Origin: a virus
Lineage: Duplodnaviria > Caudoviricetes
Length of the DNA: 64,000 bases
Virus record (IMG/VR): IMGVR_UViG_3300023179_000027
Span: 32,001-96,000 of that record
Strand: one strand, 5' to 3'
Numbering within the stretch: position 1 is the stretch's first letter; the number at the start of each line of letters is the position of its first letter. Both the position numbers and the translations under genes were made by a program. The notes under the pieces were generated by a model, which saw nothing but the letters and a program-made list of their open reading frames with translations, was not told the DNA's origin and did not search any database. This document shows, piece after piece, positions 2,366 to 9,055 of the stretch.

Positions 2366-4189
2366 TTAAATCACTGTAATTTTGTTTTTTAACAATCCTA
2401 GTCTTCTAAATCTGTAATAATTCCAAGTTAATGATTTTGTTTTATGTAACTCTCTTGGAGCTACTTTAATATCAATATTTTTATCATATACTTCTGTCAA
2501 TGTGAAATCTGTATTAATAATTACAGGAAAGTCTAGTTTAGGATCATAAATGTAATATTTTTGCAATTCATATATATGGTCAGGGGTTTTAAAAAATTCA
2601 TTAGCAACATCTTTAGCCAAATCAAATATTAATTCTTTATTATCATATAAAAATTCATATGTTGAAGTATGTAAGGCATGTCCTCCACCTTGTATCTGTT
2701 TTCCATCTTTTTTAATTATACTGCCTGAACTCAAATACAATGCAGTTGCTTCTTTGAGTAAGTTAAATTGGTCCTTTATAAAGCTATTTTCTAATTTTGT
2801 AAATAATTTGTCATAAAATTGTCTATACGATACGTTGTGTTTTTCTCTCATATAACGTGCAAATACCTGTGTATAACCTGTAATATGAAATTGTATTATC
2901 ATCCATCCATACATGTATGCTTCAATAAAATCATCTGTTGTCATTGTACTAGTTTGATTTATCAAATTTATTTTTTCTTCTACCTCAGGATCCTCAGGAC
3001 ATTTATCTACATACATTGGCATATAATTTTTAAAATTTGTAGTAACACTTTTAATTCCATATTTAAGTTTTGAATTTAATGAATTTAACTCACTATTTTC
3101 TAGTAATTGTCCAAACCATTGTTCAATATTTTGGTGTTGACCCATTTCTAATATATCATTATATCCCTGTTTCCATGAATCCAGTGTTTCAAGTGGCATA
3201 CCCAATATTAATTCAGTATAGGTTATAACATCATATTTTTCACTTAATTTCATTAAAGTTTTAATGTTATTAATTTCCATGTTGGTTCTTTTGATTGCTT
3301 CTAATGTAGATTCATTCATACTTTGCATACTAATAGTAAGTCCCCTACTATAGGGACCTATTATTTTTGCTATTTCAAAATTTAATTCAGTAGAATTTTT
3401 TGCTGACTGCAAGTTTATACTGTCAACTGTTTTGCTTCTATCCGCTACATCCCTTAAAATTAGTGCAATTTGCCTATCACGTTCTTTAAAAATTCCGAAA
3501 TTTGCATCAGCACATATTATGTATCCAATTGGCTTATTTACAATCCATTCTAATTCATTTTTAATTTTTTCAATATCAAATTTTTTTACTTTACTATAAG
3601 TTACGCCTCCCCAATCACAAAACGTACAAGCATAAGGACATCCTCTATTAGTCTCAAATGTAAAGCTCCATAATGCTTTAGGATTTTCATCTATTATTTT
3701 GTCAAACACCCCTGTTGTATATGGACTGGGGATATCTAAATTATCTAATCTTTTCTTGTCATAAAATGTTTTTAATTTTTTATCTGATATGGTATCACGT
3801 AATATTTCTAAAAAGTTTTCTTCACCTTCTGCCATTACTATGCTGTCAATAAATTCATAGTTTAATAGTTTTCCACTAGCTTGCGGTCCACCAAAAATGA
3901 TTCTACAATTAGGAAATTTTTCCTTAATCATTTTTGCCATTTTTAAATTATATCTTTCATTCCAAATATAAGTGCTAAAACCACAAAGTGTAGGATTTTC
4001 TACTTTATTTAAAACTTCTATTGGATTATCTCTTGCATAAAATAAGTCTTTTAGGATAAAATTATCTTTAATGTCATCAAACTGATTAGCGTAAGACCAT
4101 ATGCATCCAGAACTATATGGTAACCAATAAGTATCTTCATTGTCGATTGTTACATTATGTTGTGGCTGAAAAAGATATAAATTTTTCAT
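2366..4189 (-). CDS. B12-binding-domain radical SAM protein
   Basis: N-terminal GFSTYIWN/IFGGP/GEGE domain; ETNRGCPYACTFCDWG (CxxxCxxC). Confidence 0.85.
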   Translation of the reverse strand: MKNLYLFQPQHNVTIDNEDTYWLPYSSGCIWSYANQFDDIKDNFILKDLFYARDNPIEVLNKVENPTLCGFSTYIWNERYNLKMAKMIKEKFPNCRIIFGGPQASGKLLNYEFIDSIVMAEGEENFLEILRDTISDKKLKTFYDKKRLDNLDIPSPYTTGVFDKIIDENPKALWSFTFETNRGCPYACTFCDWGGVTYSKVKKFDIEKIKNELEWIVNKPIGYIICADANFGIFKERDRQIALILRDVADRSKTVDSINLQSAKNSTELNFEIAKIIGPYSRGLTISMQSMNESTLEAIKRTNMEINNIKTLMKLSEKYDVITYTELILGMPLETLDSWKQGYNDILEMGQHQNIEQWFGQLLENSELNSLNSKLKYGIKSVTTNFKNYMPMYVDKCPEDPEVEEKINLINQTSTMTTDDFIEAYMYGWMIIQFHITGYTQVFARYMREKHNVSYRQFYDKLFTKLENSFIKDQFNLLKEATALYLSSGSIIKKDGKQIQGGGHALHTSTYEFLYDNKELIFDLAKDVANEFFKTPDHIYELQKYYIYDPKLDFPVIINTDFTLTEVYDKNIDIKVAPRELHKTKSLTWNYYRFRRLGLLKNKITVI

Positions 4190-4194
4190 AAAAG

Positions 4195-5154
4195 TTATTT
4201 ATATTTGGGGATTTTACTATCCGCTGAACTAACGCATCTTTGAGTAATGCATTTTGTTGGGTGTTGAAATAAAATAAAATCTTTTAAAGTTCCCATTGGG
4301 ATGTCCTTACAACTATAACTACGTCTTACCTCATTCAATCTTATTACCAAACTTTGATACCCACTATTACAATTCCAATCTTTAAATTGATTAAAATTAA
4401 ATGCATTAAATCGTTCAGCCTGATCTATATAATAAACGTTATGTTGTTCATCATATAATTTTACTTGTAAAAGTTCTTTATCATTAATTTTTTGAGGTAA
4501 GCCTGATTTCATAATATTTATCATATCCTCTGTATACTCTGTAATTACATTACTAGCTGTTAAATCACTCTGTGGCTTAAGAGTAACGTTTATTCCTTGT
4601 TCACTAAATCTTAAACATCTTTCATAAAGTTCATAAAACAATTTTGGTACCATTACCTGATTTACAGTAACAAATACATTATTATTCATTAACCATAATA
4701 TTTTTTCTATAAATTCTGACTCAATTGCAAATTCATGATGAAAGCTTGCTGTCAAACTACGTCTAATAGAATTTTTAGTTAATTCAACATATTTGTTCCA
4801 ATACTGTAATCCTGGACTTAAGTTTGTTGTCATATGTATACTATCTCCATCTATTTCTTTTAACAAATAAAACAAATGTTTATAGGCTGTAGGTTCACCA
4901 CCGCTGAATGACCAATGGAATTTTGTAAATTTATTTTCTTTTGCCAAATGTTTAATTTTAGCTATAGTGTTTATGTATAAGTCTAATTCTTGATAATCGG
5001 GAATATCGGCATGTGCATATGGCCAACAGTAGGAACAATTATAATTACAAAATCGTCCTAATATCCAACTTATTGTAAATAAATCTGTATCAAGTAAAGT
5101 TTCTTGCCCAAATTTTATAATTTTATTAAATGGGATTTTCGTAAAATCTGTCAT
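4195..5154 (-). CDS. Radical SAM protein with C-terminal Cys (SPASM/twitch-like) motif
   Basis: CNYNCSYC, SGGEPT, C-terminal CNSG...C...C...C. Confidence 0.85.
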   Translation of the reverse strand: MTDFTKIPFNKIIKFGQETLLDTDLFTISWILGRFCNYNCSYCWPYAHADIPDYQELDLYINTIAKIKHLAKENKFTKFHWSFSGGEPTAYKHLFYLLKEIDGDSIHMTTNLSPGLQYWNKYVELTKNSIRRSLTASFHHEFAIESEFIEKILWLMNNNVFVTVNQVMVPKLFYELYERCLRFSEQGINVTLKPQSDLTASNVITEYTEDMINIMKSGLPQKINDKELLQVKLYDEQHNVYYIDQAERFNAFNFNQFKDWNCNSGYQSLVIRLNEVRRSYSCKDIPMGTLKDFILFQHPTKCITQRCVSSADSKIPKYK

Positions 5155-6688
5155 ATTGTTCTTTTAACCAATCATAGTCATTAATTAACATCAATTTTTC
5201 TTTATTATTTTTATTGGCTAAACCGTAAGACCTACCGTATAAAGCACCATCAATACAATATTTGCCAAATGGTTTATCAAGTCCTTTTGTACACCAAACG
5301 TGTAAACGTTCTGCTGTGTCTAAGGTATTTTGGTTATTTATTTGCTCACTTGCCAATTTACTACATTCTCTAAAAGCACTTCTCCATGTATTAAAGGAAT
5401 TAGTATTAAATTTAGTTATATTACTTAATTCATTTACTCGCTCATAAATTATTCCTAAACTTGTGGACATGTCAGGATCAGTTTTTTTTAACCTTGCTGT
5501 AATAGTCCTAGGTAAAAGTTTAACTGCACCATATCCATATTCTAGATCATTAATGCAATTTTTAGCTCTCCACACTCTTATTTTAGGTTGGTCATAAAAC
5601 GGCACTTTATAATCAAAATTAAATGAATCTAGTATTTCTGCATCTCCATCCACTACATAAAAATAATCTGTTTTACATAACATAGCAGCTTTTATATGAG
5701 CATTGTGTATGCCTTTTACTTTTTGAATACGCAGTGCTCTAGGAAATCTTTTTGTAAGATGTTTATAATTTTCATCAGCAAAGGTTTCATCGTAGTCTAT
5801 GAAAACAATGTCGTAAGGTATGTCATCAGGACAACGTAATATAGGTTTTACTTGGTGTTTATAATTAAAACTTTCATTTACAGAATAAACATCATCTACT
5901 ATATCTTTATCCAATAGTATGTTTATTTTATTACCTAATTCATTACATAATTCTAATAGATTAGTAGAATAATTTTTCATGTGAAATAATGAATTTAAAT
6001 AATCAAAATCGTGTAAATTTTTTAAATCAAAATTTATTAGGCTTTTATAAACTCCCAATCGAGCTCCATAAATTGCAAATAATCCATTTTCTACATCCGC
6101 TCCAATATGCATCCAGTTATATAATCTATCAAAATTTCTCCAGTCTAGGCTATTCAGGTCTGAAATAAGTTTTCCATTCTCAAGCAACAACTTGACTCCC
6201 TCACGAAAACCTGCACGCCATGCTTGTAAAGGACTTGAATTAATAATAATATCACTGGCAATATGGTTTAACTGTATATAATTACTTAAATCAAAATCTA
6301 CTAATGTACTTAAATCATTACTATTTTCATGTGTTTTCATCGTCCTAATAATTTTAAGAGGCCAACATTTTATACCACCGTTACCATACTGTTGTCCATT
6401 AATGATATTGTGTGCAGTAAAACTTACAACTTTATCATTATAATTGTTTACAAGATATTTTTGTTTATAAAAATCATCTCTAACAAAATTATCTCCATCT
6501 ACTATAATGACGTGGCTATCGCTAGGAAATAAGGCAGCAACTTTTTTATGTGCGGCGTCACTGCCTTTTATACCATGTACTCTTTTGGCCTTTGGACATA
6601 CTAATAATAAATTTTCAAAGTTTTTTTCACAGTTAGGTTCATCATAACTTAAAAATACAGTCTGATAATTATTGGGATCTAAAAACAT
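5126..6688 (-). CDS. Tandem-duplicated glycosyltransferase-like protein
   Basis: Two homologous halves, each with VF(L/I)xYDE, GI.xAH, VDGD (DxD), YGxGx(I/V)K and WRx(G/A)FRE motifs. Confidence 0.6.
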   Translation of the reverse strand: MFLDPNNYQTVFLSYDEPNCEKNFENLLLVCPKAKRVHGIKGSDAAHKKVAALFPSDSHVIIVDGDNFVRDDFYKQKYLVNNYNDKVVSFTAHNIINGQQYGNGGIKCWPLKIIRTMKTHENSNDLSTLVDFDLSNYIQLNHIASDIIINSSPLQAWRAGFREGVKLLLENGKLISDLNSLDWRNFDRLYNWMHIGADVENGLFAIYGARLGVYKSLINFDLKNLHDFDYLNSLFHMKNYSTNLLELCNELGNKINILLDKDIVDDVYSVNESFNYKHQVKPILRCPDDIPYDIVFIDYDETFADENYKHLTKRFPRALRIQKVKGIHNAHIKAAMLCKTDYFYVVDGDAEILDSFNFDYKVPFYDQPKIRVWRAKNCINDLEYGYGAVKLLPRTITARLKKTDPDMSTSLGIIYERVNELSNITKFNTNSFNTWRSAFRECSKLASEQINNQNTLDTAERLHVWCTKGLDKPFGKYCIDGALYGRSYGLANKNNKEKLMLINDYDWLKEQYDRFYENPI

Positions 6689-6724
6689 TTATTATTTATA
6701 TTCATATTTTGGGAAAAAATAAAC

Positions 6725-6771
6725 TTGTTTTTTATTTAAAAATACTATATTATTATGAATAGGAATAAATA
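6725..6771 (+). promoter_or_regulatory. Candidate promoter(s) for the leader/tRNA transcript
   Basis: TTGTTT(6725)-17nt-TATTAT(6748) weak sigma70 match; TAAATA late-type motif at 6766-6771. Confidence 0.4.
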
Positions 6772-6778
6772 AAATACT

Positions 6779-6904
6779 ATGATGAATACCTACTTGAAAA
6801 TAAATTTATGTCATTGGTTTAATGCCAATGAATCCTTTGCGCCAGTAAACTCATCAAGTATCCAGCGCACACAGTTAAATAGAGGATACCTGGGGATTAG
6901 GTAA
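6779..6904 (+). CDS. Putative attenuator leader peptide, 41 aa (MMNTYLKINLCHWFNANESFAPVNSSSIQRTQLNRGYLGIR)
   Basis: Open frame below the ORF-track cutoff; 19 of 20 amino acids; 3' end complementary to the terminator 5' arm. Confidence 0.6.
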   Translation: MMNTYLKINLCHWFNANESFAPVNSSSIQRTQLNRGYLGIR

Positions 6905-6923
6905 AACTAGAAAAGTTAAATCT

Positions 6924-6957
6924 AAACCCTGGGAAACTTAAAAACCCAGGGTTTTTT
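6924..6957 (+). terminator. Intrinsic terminator / attenuator hairpin
   Basis: (AAA)CCCTGGG 6924-6933 / CCCAGGG(TTT) 6945-6954, U-tract 6952-6957. Confidence 0.8.
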
Positions 6958-6976
6958 GTTTTATAATAGGAGAAAT

Positions 6977-7144
6977 ATGAAGGTTGACAGTAATTATGAA
7001 ATTGATGTAGAGTACGGTTTCTTTGATGAATTTGATTTTACAGAGCCATTAACAGAGGAACAGTACAGTATGCTTATTGAACGAAAGTTGAATATAGCGA
7101 AATTCTATCATACATTGGATCAGAATAGATTTAAAATATTATGA
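6977..7144 (+). CDS. Small acidic hypothetical protein
   Basis: AGGAG at 6968-6972 before ATG 6977; 55 aa. Confidence 0.55.
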   Translation: MKVDSNYEIDVEYGFFDEFDFTEPLTEEQYSMLIERKLNIAKFYHTLDQNRFKIL

Positions 7145-7145
7145 T

Positions 7146-7328
7146 AGTAGTGTATAAGGTAACGAGGGCCAAGAAACAGCACTATAAAATTGTTTCAAAC
7201 GGGCGGACAGTATACATGAAATTTGCGGAGGTAACGCACAAAGTAAGACTGCTGATTGGGGCATGACCCCAATATGCCGTGTTTAAACACGGCATTCTAA
7301 AATGTATCAAGATATATTTTGGAATGCC
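7146..7328 (+). ncRNA. Candidate structured ncRNA upstream of the first tRNA
   Basis: GC-enriched, no ORF; several helices, a possible pseudoknot, a 22-nt palindrome and an ~17-bp hairpin. Confidence 0.5.
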
Positions 7329-7353
7329 TGTTTATCTAGTAAATATAATCAGT

Positions 7354-7428
7354 TGGAGGTTCGCCAAGTGGTAAGGCCCCGGATTTTGATTCCGGTATGC
7401 ATAGGTTCGAATCCTATACCTCCTGCCA
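7354..7428 (+). tRNA. tRNA-Gln(TTG)
   Basis: Cloverleaf; CCGGA-TT-TTG-AT-TCCGG; TTCGAAT; encoded CCA. Confidence 0.95.
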
Positions 7429-7431
7429 AAT

Positions 7432-7506
7432 GCTGATGTAGATCAGTGGTAGATCGCTTTCTTGGTAAGAAAGAAGTCGTGAGTTCAAATCTCGCCATCA
7501 GCACCA
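7432..7506 (+). tRNA. tRNA-Thr(GGT)
   Basis: CTTTC-TT-GGT-AA-GAAAG; encoded CCA. Confidence 0.95.
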
Positions 7507-7518
7507 AACAAATTAACC

Positions 7519-8742
7519 ATGTATAATAGATTTGACATTATAGACTTTCAAGTGATTTATGATAAATGGATGGCTAATACCAACCCATTTAATGTTTACA
7601 TACACAGCCCCTTTTGTCAGTCAATTTGTAAGTTTTGTATCTATAAAGGGTTGAAGTACAACAATACTTTATTTGAACAATACTACGATCATTACCTACC
7701 TAAGGTAGTTGATATGTACAGTAACATTTTAGATACTAAAACTAATTTAATTACTAGTTGGTTTTTTGGTGGTGGTACACCGTCATTAATGACAGCTAGT
7801 ATGGCAGATATGTTATTTGATTCTTTACCAAACTTTGCTAATCATCCTAGTGAAAAGGTTTTTGAAATACACCCTGGTGCATACACTGTTGAACTTTTAG
7901 ATGTGCTTAAAAAATACAATTTTACAACTGTAATCATTTGCCAACAAACATTTGATATAGGCACATTAAAACGTCAAAATAGAACTGTATCAGGTATTGA
8001 TACATGTAAAAAGTTGTTTAAGGAGTGCAGAAAACGTGGATTTAAAATAGGATTAGACTTAATAGCTTTTTTAAATCAGCAACCGACTGACATACAAATC
8101 CTACAAAATGATTTAGATATTGTCAGTCAACTTAAACCTGATGAAATTAGTGTACAAACTTTGTATCAGCGTAAAGATTTGACAAGAATGGTTTTGGATT
8201 CTATCTTTAATCATAAACTCATCAAACACTATACTCCTGAATGGGCTGATAAATTGTCAAAAGATGATTTACTTGTTATCAATCAACAATTAAAATGTTT
8301 TAGGTTATTTAATAATAAGACACCTAAAAACAATGAATTTTATAGTTTTACTGGTAATATGGATCCGAATTGGCAAATTTTAAACAATCAATTACAAACA
8401 CTAGCTATTGGTTCTTATAAGAACCAATTGACACAAACACATTCAAACATTAGTGGTTTTAATTACTTTGAGACAAATATTAATAATATTGATCCAGTAT
8501 TTAAGTTTGTCACAAATGACCTAGAGCAAGAAAAGTTATATGTACAAAATGTTCTTAAAGAAGCAAACATTGTTAAATCTGTAGACGATATTGTTTATAG
8601 TCATAGTTTTATCTATGCAAGAGAGATACCTATTATGTTAGATTTTAGTGTACGTAATCTAAATGAACAAGAAGTAGATAATATTATAAAAAAGATACAT
8701 AATAAAAAAAGAATGATGTTAAAAAAATTTAAGGAGAATTAA
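7519..8742 (+). CDS. HemN/HemW-like radical SAM protein
   Basis: VYIHSPFCQSICKFC, FGGGTPS. Confidence 0.8.
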   Translation: MYNRFDIIDFQVIYDKWMANTNPFNVYIHSPFCQSICKFCIYKGLKYNNTLFEQYYDHYLPKVVDMYSNILDTKTNLITSWFFGGGTPSLMTASMADMLFDSLPNFANHPSEKVFEIHPGAYTVELLDVLKKYNFTTVIICQQTFDIGTLKRQNRTVSGIDTCKKLFKECRKRGFKIGLDLIAFLNQQPTDIQILQNDLDIVSQLKPDEISVQTLYQRKDLTRMVLDSIFNHKLIKHYTPEWADKLSKDDLLVINQQLKCFRLFNNKTPKNNEFYSFTGNMDPNWQILNNQLQTLAIGSYKNQLTQTHSNISGFNYFETNINNIDPVFKFVTNDLEQEKLYVQNVLKEANIVKSVDDIVYSHSFIYAREIPIMLDFSVRNLNEQEVDNIIKKIHNKKRMMLKKFKEN

Positions 8743-8979: not shown

Positions 8980-9055
8980 GCCTCTTAAGCTAATCTAGTG
9001 AAAGCGCTGGTCTGAAGAACCAGATAGTCAGGAGCGTAACCTGGAGGAGGCCCCA
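8980..9055 (+). tRNA. tRNA-Phe(GAA), atypical T-loop
   Basis: CTGGT-CT-GAA-GA-ACCAG; T-loop AGCGTAA; A8; CCA. Confidence 0.85.

Follow-up and report, generated by a model that had tools for sequence, protein, structure and literature searches.

A candidate leader-peptide attenuator with complete amino-acid coverage at the head of phage transfer RNA arrays

The DNA stretch analysed here (the window) comprises 64,000 nucleotides (nt), bases 32001–96000 of the 130.6-kb viral contig IMGVR_UViG_3300023179_000027, with 32% G+C and 23 transfer RNA (tRNA) genes predicted by ARAGORN. The contig also codes for a DNA ligase and tail-fibre proteins, which identifies the source as a tailed phage. A block of minus-strand genes in the window ends at 6688 and plus-strand genes follow from 6977 on. 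The divergent intergenic region between them (6689–6976) carries a putative attenuator on the plus strand, composed of a promoter, a short leader open reading frame (ORF) and an intrinsic terminator that competes with an upstream hairpin. In contigs of uncultured freshwater phages, the unit marks the 5´ border of tRNA arrays and is laid out as a promoter, an ORF of 38–62 codons, the hairpin competing with the intrinsic terminator, an ORF of ~55 amino acids (aa), a non-coding RNA (ncRNA) and, usually, tRNA-Gln.

The leader ORF of the window occupies 6779–6904 on the plus strand and encodes 41 aa. The ORF list and a direct reading of the sequence agree on these coordinates, which had been given by an earlier sequence-only reading of this DNA. 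By count, the peptide contains 19/20 amino acids, with only Asp missing, and its 41 codons include 31 distinct ones; the first 30 codons hold 18 amino acids, as read from the translation. The ORF is preceded by a weak candidate leader promoter, TTGTTT-N17-TATTAT (6725–6753, plus strand), which ends 25 nt before the ATG and scores 8/12. Promoter scores are given here as sigma-70-like matches out of 12. Directly before the start codon lies a conserved block of the 5´ untranslated region (UTR), AGGA-TAAATAAA-ACT (6762–6778, plus strand), which is formed by invariant alignment columns.

The intrinsic terminator (6924–6962, plus strand) is indicated by folding and covariation. It consists of the stem AAACCCTGGG / CCCAGGGTTT, an 11-nt A-rich loop and a T6-G-T4 tract. 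The sequence confirms the terminator core that had been proposed, in which CCCTGGG (6927–6933) faces CCCAGGG (6945–6951) and T6 follows at 6952–6957. A consensus scan missed this terminator because its loop measures 11 nt and the scan permits 3–8 nt. The antiterminator hairpin spans 6890–6932 on the plus strand. Its 5´ strand is formed by the last four codons and the stop codon of the leader (at position 12 of 43 in the hairpin), and its 3´ strand takes in most of the 5´ arm of the terminator. The proposed complementarity of 6889–6902 to 6920–6933 was likewise found in the sequence, with 13/14 positions paired and three G-U pairs.

Folding of the window sequence supports the two structures, which are mutually exclusive as had been claimed. 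When the 3´ arm of the terminator is left out, the sequence adopts the antiterminator as its structure of minimum free energy (MFE), at −20.8 kcal/mol (z −2.0). Inclusion of the 3´ arm turns the 126-nt fold into the terminator, at −29.5 kcal/mol (z −2.18), an energy that 5/200 shuffles match. In the 226-nt fold, the MFE structure is the antiterminator and the centroid is the terminator. Taken separately, the antiterminator has −13.7 kcal/mol compared with −12.4 kcal/mol for the terminator. The weaker helix formed by 6858–6863 and 6884–6889, which had also been noticed before, is present and appears in the MFE folds.

Relatives of the unit were collected by several searches. The 520-aa protein encoded next to the unit matched 83 stretches, from which 80 loci were retained; among these, L001 alone has the same divergent tRNA-side arrangement, and the other loci of this protein were dropped, since the gene sits in other contexts there. 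In L001, an ORF starting with ATGATG and a terminator that shows compensatory changes are accompanied by an ORF of ~52 aa, the conserved ncRNA and tRNA-Gln. A 15-nt core of the ncRNA was used as a leader-independent anchor and matched 90 viral contigs, ~17 of them by chance. A leader profile built from 8 leaders recovered 59 core-anchored loci together with the window's own genome, which give 48 distinct sequences. The 39 core loci beyond the leader profile comprise the ~17 chance matches, which lie in unrelated GC-rich DNA, several loci cut at the contig end (L084, L118, L151 and L165 among them), and a remainder in which 12 distinct divergent copies were recognised by eye and kept as a second set. 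A metagenome scan added 9 further loci with 5 new peptides. The leader DNA pattern found 14 stretches in viral contigs, of which 9 are true and five (L171, L172, L174, L175 and L181) were dropped as chance matches in GC-rich coding DNA. The 15-nt core occurs in at least 120 stretches of genome contigs, and none of those listed matched the leader profile. A search of 5.8 billion proteins with the leader profile returned 153 clusters, all named 'hypothetical'. Two loci were not counted: L124 is rearranged and has lost the terminator, so that its ORF continues into the ncRNA, and a one-base insertion in L115 relative to L149 shifts the stop codon.

The short ORF is retained in the relatives, with its frame open in 47/47 loci. 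The other two frames contain 4.57 and 4.34 stops on average and are open in 0/47. The leader ATG is invariant in the alignment, and differences in leader length are whole codons. With these features the leader ORF looks translated. Within 110 nt upstream of the ATG, a promoter scoring at least 10/12 is found in 44/46 relatives. Divergent relatives have TAAATAAA within the promoter spacer. In the divergent subfamily (L081, L090, L092, L104, L119 and L164), no more than 7–10 nt separate the −10 hexamer from the ATG, so that a leader mRNA made there would carry a very short 5´ UTR or none.

The amino-acid composition of the leader is the defining trait of the family. In the window copy alone, the diversity emphasised by the sequence-only reading is marginal: at least 19 amino acids are reached in 5.0% of random 41-aa windows drawn from the long ORFs of this genome (P ~0.05), so that this copy by itself is suggestive and barely beyond chance. 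Because both the composition (P ~0.05) and the fold (z ~−2) of the window are weak alone, the significance rests on the relatives, and it is as a family trait that the claim of high diversity holds. All 20 amino acids are present in 44/48 distinct ORFs found by the profile; 19 are present in the other 4, and no ORF has 18. Among the 12 divergent copies, 8 contain all 20, 3 contain 19 and 1 contains 18, and all 20 occur in one peptide of just 38 aa. Of the database proteins listed (120), 103 have all 20, 16 have 19 and 1 has 18; 9 of these 16 are N-terminally short gene calls (34–38 aa) that lack Cys only. In the pooled set of 158 distinct peptides (39–62 aa), all 20 amino acids occur in 143, 19 in 13 and 18 in 2.

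Controls do not reproduce this coverage. The neighbouring ORF of 48–64 aa at the same loci contains all 20 amino acids in 0/35 cases (mean 16.9). Random windows of the genome's long ORFs contain all 20 in 0.55% (41 aa), 1.1% (45 aa) and 4.1% (54 aa) of cases. Independent draws from the pooled composition of the family give a mean of 1.8/54 peptides with all 20 and a maximum of 7 in 2000 simulations, compared with 46/54 observed. Empty amino-acid-by-peptide cells number 10/1080 against a Poisson expectation of 167. Exactly one Cys is found in 51/54 peptides and exactly one Trp in 50/54. No amino acid is enriched, and Cys, Trp, His and Asp average 1.06–1.20 copies.

Because related sequences share ancestry, relocation of single residues is the stronger test. 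Where Cys is absent from its usual column, it is present elsewhere in 31/33 peptides, and where it occupies the column, a second copy is found in only 4/125. The corresponding values are 28/30 and 16/128 for His, 5/5 and 10/153 for Trp, and 66/66 and 25/92 for Tyr. The comparison of sequences indicates that complete amino-acid coverage is a family trait under selection. The coverage is also placed where it could be read: all 20 amino acids occur already upstream of the antiterminator strand in 45/52 distinct sequences, a count that excludes the long MFE variants L146 and L081. An amino acid that is present solely inside the antiterminator strand was found in 1/52 sequences, and none such in 51/52. 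Coverage is thus complete before the antiterminator strand, which is the arrangement that a sensor needs.

These results bear on the possibility that the ORF encodes a small trans-acting phage protein from a monocistronic unit of promoter, gene and terminator, in which the hairpin would be only a 3´ mRNA structure and the downstream genes would use their own promoter. We consider this explanation unlikely. It agrees with the strong promoter before the ORF, the terminator behind it and a second promoter-like site in 36/46 relatives, and the peptide is partly conserved (FAP.YPTSIRG, KH and W). A protein fold, however, does not explain a single Cys and a single Trp that relocate, nor why a peptide with as few as 38 residues should include all 20 amino acids. 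Although the 153 database clusters were called as proteins, the leader peptide has no match in Pfam or PHROGs, and its ratio of nonsynonymous to synonymous polymorphism (pN/pS), at 0.73, is higher than a functional fold would suggest. A small protein also leaves unexplained why the 3´ hairpin always uses the 5´ arm of the terminator and covaries with it, and it does not fit 7 loci where the ncRNA follows the terminator within ~10 nt and the interval lacks a promoter-like site.

An attenuator, by comparison, predicts that the switch itself is conserved. In all 58/58 relatives, a transcript truncated behind the 5´ arm of the terminator has an MFE structure in which this arm is bound to the 3´-terminal part of the ORF, so that the antiterminator complementarity seen in the window recurs across the family. 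The stop codon lies inside the antiterminator hairpin in 58/58 and 20–33 nt before the 5´ arm of the terminator in 58/58. With this spacing, a terminating ribosome would therefore cover the antiterminator strand and not the terminator. In these 58 sequences, the antiterminators range from −11.7 to −32.2 kcal/mol and the terminators from −9.7 to −19.6 kcal/mol. The terminator covaries, as had been anticipated: 98.2% of its positions are paired, 4 pairs are changed on both sides, and 0/500 shuffles score as high. The sequences of the antiterminator hairpin are wholly different between subfamilies. Across 20 clusters, cognate antiterminator strands pair with −20.2 kcal/mol, compared with −9.8 ± 5.1 kcal/mol for non-cognate strands, and the cognate partner ranks first in 14/20 clusters in each direction. 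The two worst cognate ranks come from L146, in which strand extraction was poor; L081, also poorly extracted, still ranks first. The cross-pairing energies indicate that the antiterminator strands covary between subfamilies. The T-run is degenerate in a few relatives, including L143, L087, L135, L094, L150 and L178.

The loop of the terminator (6934–6944 in the window) is long (10–12 nt), A-rich and conserved in sequence, with GAAACTAAAAAGTC in most relatives. Such a conserved loop is atypical of a plain terminator, and a binding or pairing role is possible.

Additional structures were observed inside the ORF. A long-range helix pairs TACTTGA (6791–6797) with TCAAGTA (6854–6860) on the plus strand and encloses a hairpin formed by TCATTGG (6811–6817) and CCAATGA (6825–6831); both were detected by covariation. 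In the alignment, 83.0% of the cells of these helices are paired, compared with at most 45.8% when slid, and 7 pairs are changed on both sides, a value that 2/500 shuffles reach. The window itself shows compensatory changes in an intra-ORF helix relative to other members. The weak upstream helix (6858–6889, plus strand), which was found by folding and in which region 1 (6858–6863) pairs with 6884–6889, adjoins region 2 and corresponds to the UCC-GUGG : CC-GGGG pairing of the family. This 5-bp upstream (1:2) helix is 96.4% paired but still 83.6% paired when slid by one column, which gives it weak support, and the MFE structure of the free truncated RNA is still the antiterminator despite the candidate 1:2 helix. 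Our guess is that the intra-ORF structure serves pausing or the synchronisation of ribosome and polymerase.

The covarying helices within the ORF could also point to a structured regulatory RNA, similar to a riboswitch or a T-box, whose binding partner would be a ligand, a tRNA or a protein, with the antiterminator and terminator as its expression platform and the ORF secondary or serving to load ribosomes. The conserved sequence of the terminator loop, the weak third-position signal and codons fixed at the nucleotide level (AGT ATY CGY GGC, no TCN or AGR) are in its favour. Yet the frame is open in all 47 loci with 4–5 stops in each other frame, and the composition and relocation results depend on that frame. 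No Rfam 15 family, T-box included, matches 6689–6976 even at E values up to 1, and the intra-ORF helices differ or are absent in divergent members that keep the ORF, the composition and the switch. A regulatory RNA of this kind is therefore quite unlikely.

A further question is whether a specific nascent peptide arrests the ribosome, such that (P/T)SIR(G) would stall it in response to one metabolite or factor within an otherwise similar attenuator. Of all stretches of the peptide, SIR is the best conserved across the two length classes (S 41/46, I 44/46, R 41/46) and lies just upstream of the antiterminator strand, so that a ribosome stalled there would leave the strand free. The motif, however, is missing from divergent members that keep the switch and the composition of all 20 amino acids, its conservation is at the nucleotide level and overlaps two helices, and an arrest peptide does not require every amino acid. 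We regard this version as very unlikely.

The genes downstream of the switch are consistent with a role in tRNA supply. Same-strand tRNA genes follow the unit in 41/47 loci, the remaining 6/47 loci ending within ~1 kb, and upstream tRNA genes were found in 0/47; the unit therefore heads tRNA arrays, as had been noted for the window. The first downstream tRNA is tRNA-Gln in 32/41 loci and starts 213–1202 nt after the terminator. Four loci that were found by the leader pattern alone and are long enough to judge carry 5–30 tRNA genes downstream. In L149, 35 tRNAs for all 20 amino acids could read 39/43 codons of its own leader; in the window, the phage's own tRNAs could read 33/41 leader codons.

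Taken together, we hold it moderately probable that the element is a ribosome-mediated attenuator that senses overall decoding capacity, in which fast translation leads to termination and a stall at any codon leads to read-through. The upstream promoter would begin a short transcript, and a ribosome would translate the 41-codon ORF while RNA polymerase moves ahead. The last codons and the stop codon would act as the 5´ strand of the antiterminator, and the 5´ arm of the terminator as its 3´ strand. A ribosome that keeps pace to the end of the ORF would melt or mask the 5´ strand, such that the terminator forms and transcription stops at 6952–6957. If the ribosome is absent, or is held earlier because some tRNA, of whatever kind, is lacking, uncharged or cleaved, the antiterminator would form first, and the polymerase would go on to transcribe the 55-aa ORF together with the conserved ncRNA and the tRNA array. 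Falling decoding capacity would thereby raise the expression of the phage tRNA set, and restored capacity would lower it. The comparative tests that the sequence-only reading had named all favour an attenuator; from them we infer its function, namely that the leader is translated, that stalling favours expression, that decoding failure is the signal and that the downstream genes depend on the element. We give about an even chance to the wider proposal of a universal decoding-capacity sensor, in which the leader would be built to include each amino acid once or a few times, and any tRNA shortage or cleavage would switch on the complete phage tRNA set and the companion ncRNA, with negative feedback as decoding recovers. 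This proposal could extend to attack by host anticodon nucleases, and the element would form an on-demand circuit for counter-defence and homeostasis.

Several observations weigh against such an attenuator. The coding signal from substitutions is weak: the median pN/pS is 0.73, and the entropy at codon positions 1/2/3 is 1.01/0.87/1.20. This pN/pS fits constrained single-copy residues with a free remainder, and equally a poorly constrained ORF. S-I-R-G is fixed at the nucleotide level as AGT ATY CGY GGC, without TCN or AGR codons, and together with the covariation of the intra-ORF helices this implies that the RNA does more than encode. The leader has no well-spaced Shine-Dalgarno sequence; the ribosome-binding site is poorly spaced, as had been cautioned, with AGGA at 6762–6765 lying 13 nt before the ATG. 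The window copy is among the least typical of the family, with no Asp, a promoter of 8/12 and an antiterminator margin of 1.3 kcal/mol. Raw counts overstate independence because the family members are related, which the relocation test answers only in part.

The folding evidence is also uneven. Within the close short-form group, the alignment columns of the antiterminator covary only weakly, since 29/500 shuffles reach their score, although they are 84.9% paired compared with at most 63.9% when slid; a problem of alignment register partly accounts for the weakness. When a ribosome mask and the full terminator were combined in equilibrium folding of 8 members, the outcome was mixed, and only L158 and L085 gave the clean predicted profile. 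In the equilibrium mask scan, the terminator is favoured at most ribosome positions in L173, L001 and L149; the window, L134 and L104 are intermediate, with P(terminator) of 0.29 for the free RNA of the window. These scans describe equilibrium thermodynamics, and the real decision would be kinetic. A cruder mask scan counts any upstream partner, and its drop at the 3´ end is not clean in all 58.

The leader gate is moreover not the sole route to tRNA expression, because a second promoter-like site lies 3´ of the terminator. Bypassing promoters had been raised earlier as a caution. The window has TTGACA-N18-TAGAGT at 6984–7013 (plus strand), inside the beginning of the next ORF, and a TTGACA-N17/18-TAGAAT site scoring at least 10/12 is present in 36/46 relatives as well as in the window. 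A perfect TATAAT occupies 7344–7349, its last base 5 nt ahead of where tRNA-Gln starts (7354); were this a −10 element, transcripts would begin at, or internal to, the mature 5´ end of the tRNA. If the second site is active, the ncRNA and the tRNAs have a second, unregulated source. Tandem TTGACA-N17-TAGAAT units stand between the terminator and the small ORF in two loci, three in L180 (~344–560) and two in L176 (~3207–3400).

Among deposited phages, the listed matches to window positions 6000–8000 cover tRNA genes only, and the L149 unit has no match; in these searches, no deposited phage was found to carry the element. RNA-labelled sequencing runs contain only tRNA-like parts of the stretch, as contigs, and so speak neither for nor against its expression. 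DNA near-identical to the window was found by a search of sequencing runs in freshwater, lake and one marine-labelled metagenome runs. Contigs of the runs X18 and X20 join 6960 to 7190 and represent a natural variant without the 55-aa ORF. As far as the texts reached by a full-text literature search extend, no earlier description of such an element was found. The IMG/VR catalogue of candidate structured RNAs (PMC10690425), in the parts of it that were accessible, uses 'terminator' in general terms only and never 'attenuat' or 'leader', and its supplementary table may list the ncRNA or the terminator region of this locus.

The first gene behind the terminator in the window is a conserved small ORF of 55 aa (6977–7144, plus strand) with the motif ..TEEQ..LIE.K..R.., which has no Pfam or PHROG family. 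Most relatives have such an ORF of ~50–60 aa. The start codon of this ORF is situated in the spacer of the second promoter-like site, upstream of where that site would start transcription; an active second site would thus leave the ~55-aa protein to read-through transcripts alone. Seven loci (L143, L087, L135, L094, L129, L167 and L111) have neither the small ORF nor the promoter-like site, and here only ~10 nt lie between the terminator and the ncRNA; the first four of these loci have a degenerate T-run.

The conserved structured ncRNA (7160–7345, plus strand) has its core AAACGGGCGGACAGTA at ~7198–7213 and would be the first RNA gene met by read-through. It comprises covarying hairpins with the conserved loops AACGAGG and CACTATAAA, and the conserved single-stranded blocks AAACGGGCGGACAGTA, ACATGAA and AGTAAGACTACTG. 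In a comparison of the leader and the downstream genes with Rfam 15, only tRNAs pass; the best other family on the ncRNA is RsmY with 19.9 bits, against a gathering threshold of 57. The ncRNA is followed by tRNA-Gln(UUG) and tRNA-Thr(GGU) at 7354–7506 (plus strand), the first genes of the 23-gene tRNA region. The ARAGORN set for the genome lacks tRNAs for Ala, Phe and Tyr. Rfam calls a tRNA at 8980–9052 (38.2 bits) that ARAGORN does not list and that had earlier been taken for tRNA-Phe.

The head of the tRNA array is flanked by three ORFs with radical-SAM domains (4195–5154, 7519–8742 and one weaker) and by the gene of the 520-aa protein; this flanking region covers 2366–6688 on the minus strand and 7519–8742. 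The 520-aa protein belongs to no known family and has relatives in >80 viral contigs, where it stands in other contexts. A precursor of a ribosomally synthesised and post-translationally modified peptide beside radical-SAM genes was considered for the leader and dropped, since the constant neighbour across loci is the tRNA array and not the radical-SAM genes. A terminator serving the minus-strand genes was rejected as well: the T-run is on the plus strand, and the minus-strand genes lead away from the site.

If the proposed mechanism is true, this would be the first 'pan-valent' attenuator known. Leader-peptide attenuation is known for the sensing of one to three amino acids, and a leader selected for all 20 would show that attenuation can report the general state of translation. 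The reason for large phage tRNA sets and their control are unsettled; codon usage, decay of host tRNAs and escape from tRNA-cleaving defences have been proposed as reasons, and a sensor at the head of the array would tie a failure of decoding directly to the supply of tRNAs. The promoters look sigma-70-like, and the unit should therefore be approachable outside its natural host, which is uncultured. The family also provides a simple search criterion for other phages and for cellular genomes, namely a complete amino-acid set within 40–60 codons beside a terminator switch.

The anatomy of the unit resembles that of the enteric trp, his, leu, thr and ilv attenuators, in which a short leader ORF precedes an intrinsic terminator whose 5´ arm has an alternative upstream partner. 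As in the trp/his type, a terminating ribosome at the stop codon would cover the upstream segment, the distance from the stop codon to the T-run is ~55–75 nt, and a stall would cause read-through. The ilvGMEDA and thr leaders respond to two or three amino acids. In contrast to the trp/his type, the leader described here has no codon run for one amino acid; all amino acids are present in the family, most of the rare ones once. The target is a phage ncRNA and tRNA array instead of a biosynthetic operon, and the regulatory part would extend over ~80–90% of the ORF. The trp leader terminates when untranslated, whereas read-through is predicted for the untranslated leader here, since its antiterminator matches or exceeds the terminator in stability and no strong 1:2 protector helix is evident. 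The earlier assignment to the trp/his type thus stands for the anatomy and not for the logic.

Other systems share single aspects of this design. Antibiotic-responsive attenuators lie upstream of the bmrCD, vmlR and msr/mef genes, and their leader ORFs sense a general inhibition of translation; as proposed here, the progress of the ribosome chooses between terminator and antiterminator, and the signal is the state of translation. Those leaders respond to drugs, control resistance genes and are not known to be constrained to include all amino acids, whereas the present element combines a constraint on composition with a proposed output of tRNAs. In T-box riboswitches (RF00230 in Rfam), the decision between terminator and antiterminator is likewise tied to the status of tRNA upstream of translation-related genes, but a T-box senses one tRNA directly without an ORF, and no specifier or T-box sequence was seen in the present element. 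The pyrBI and pyrE coupling attenuators also have a leader ORF of ~40 codons, and the distance between ribosome and polymerase sets their termination. There, a close ribosome blocks the terminator; here, close coupling should favour termination, because a ribosome at the stop codon cannot reach the terminator arm 20–33 nt away. The anatomy of a leader-peptide attenuator is known, and the composition rule covering all 20 amino acids and the proposed output into phage tRNAs set this element apart.

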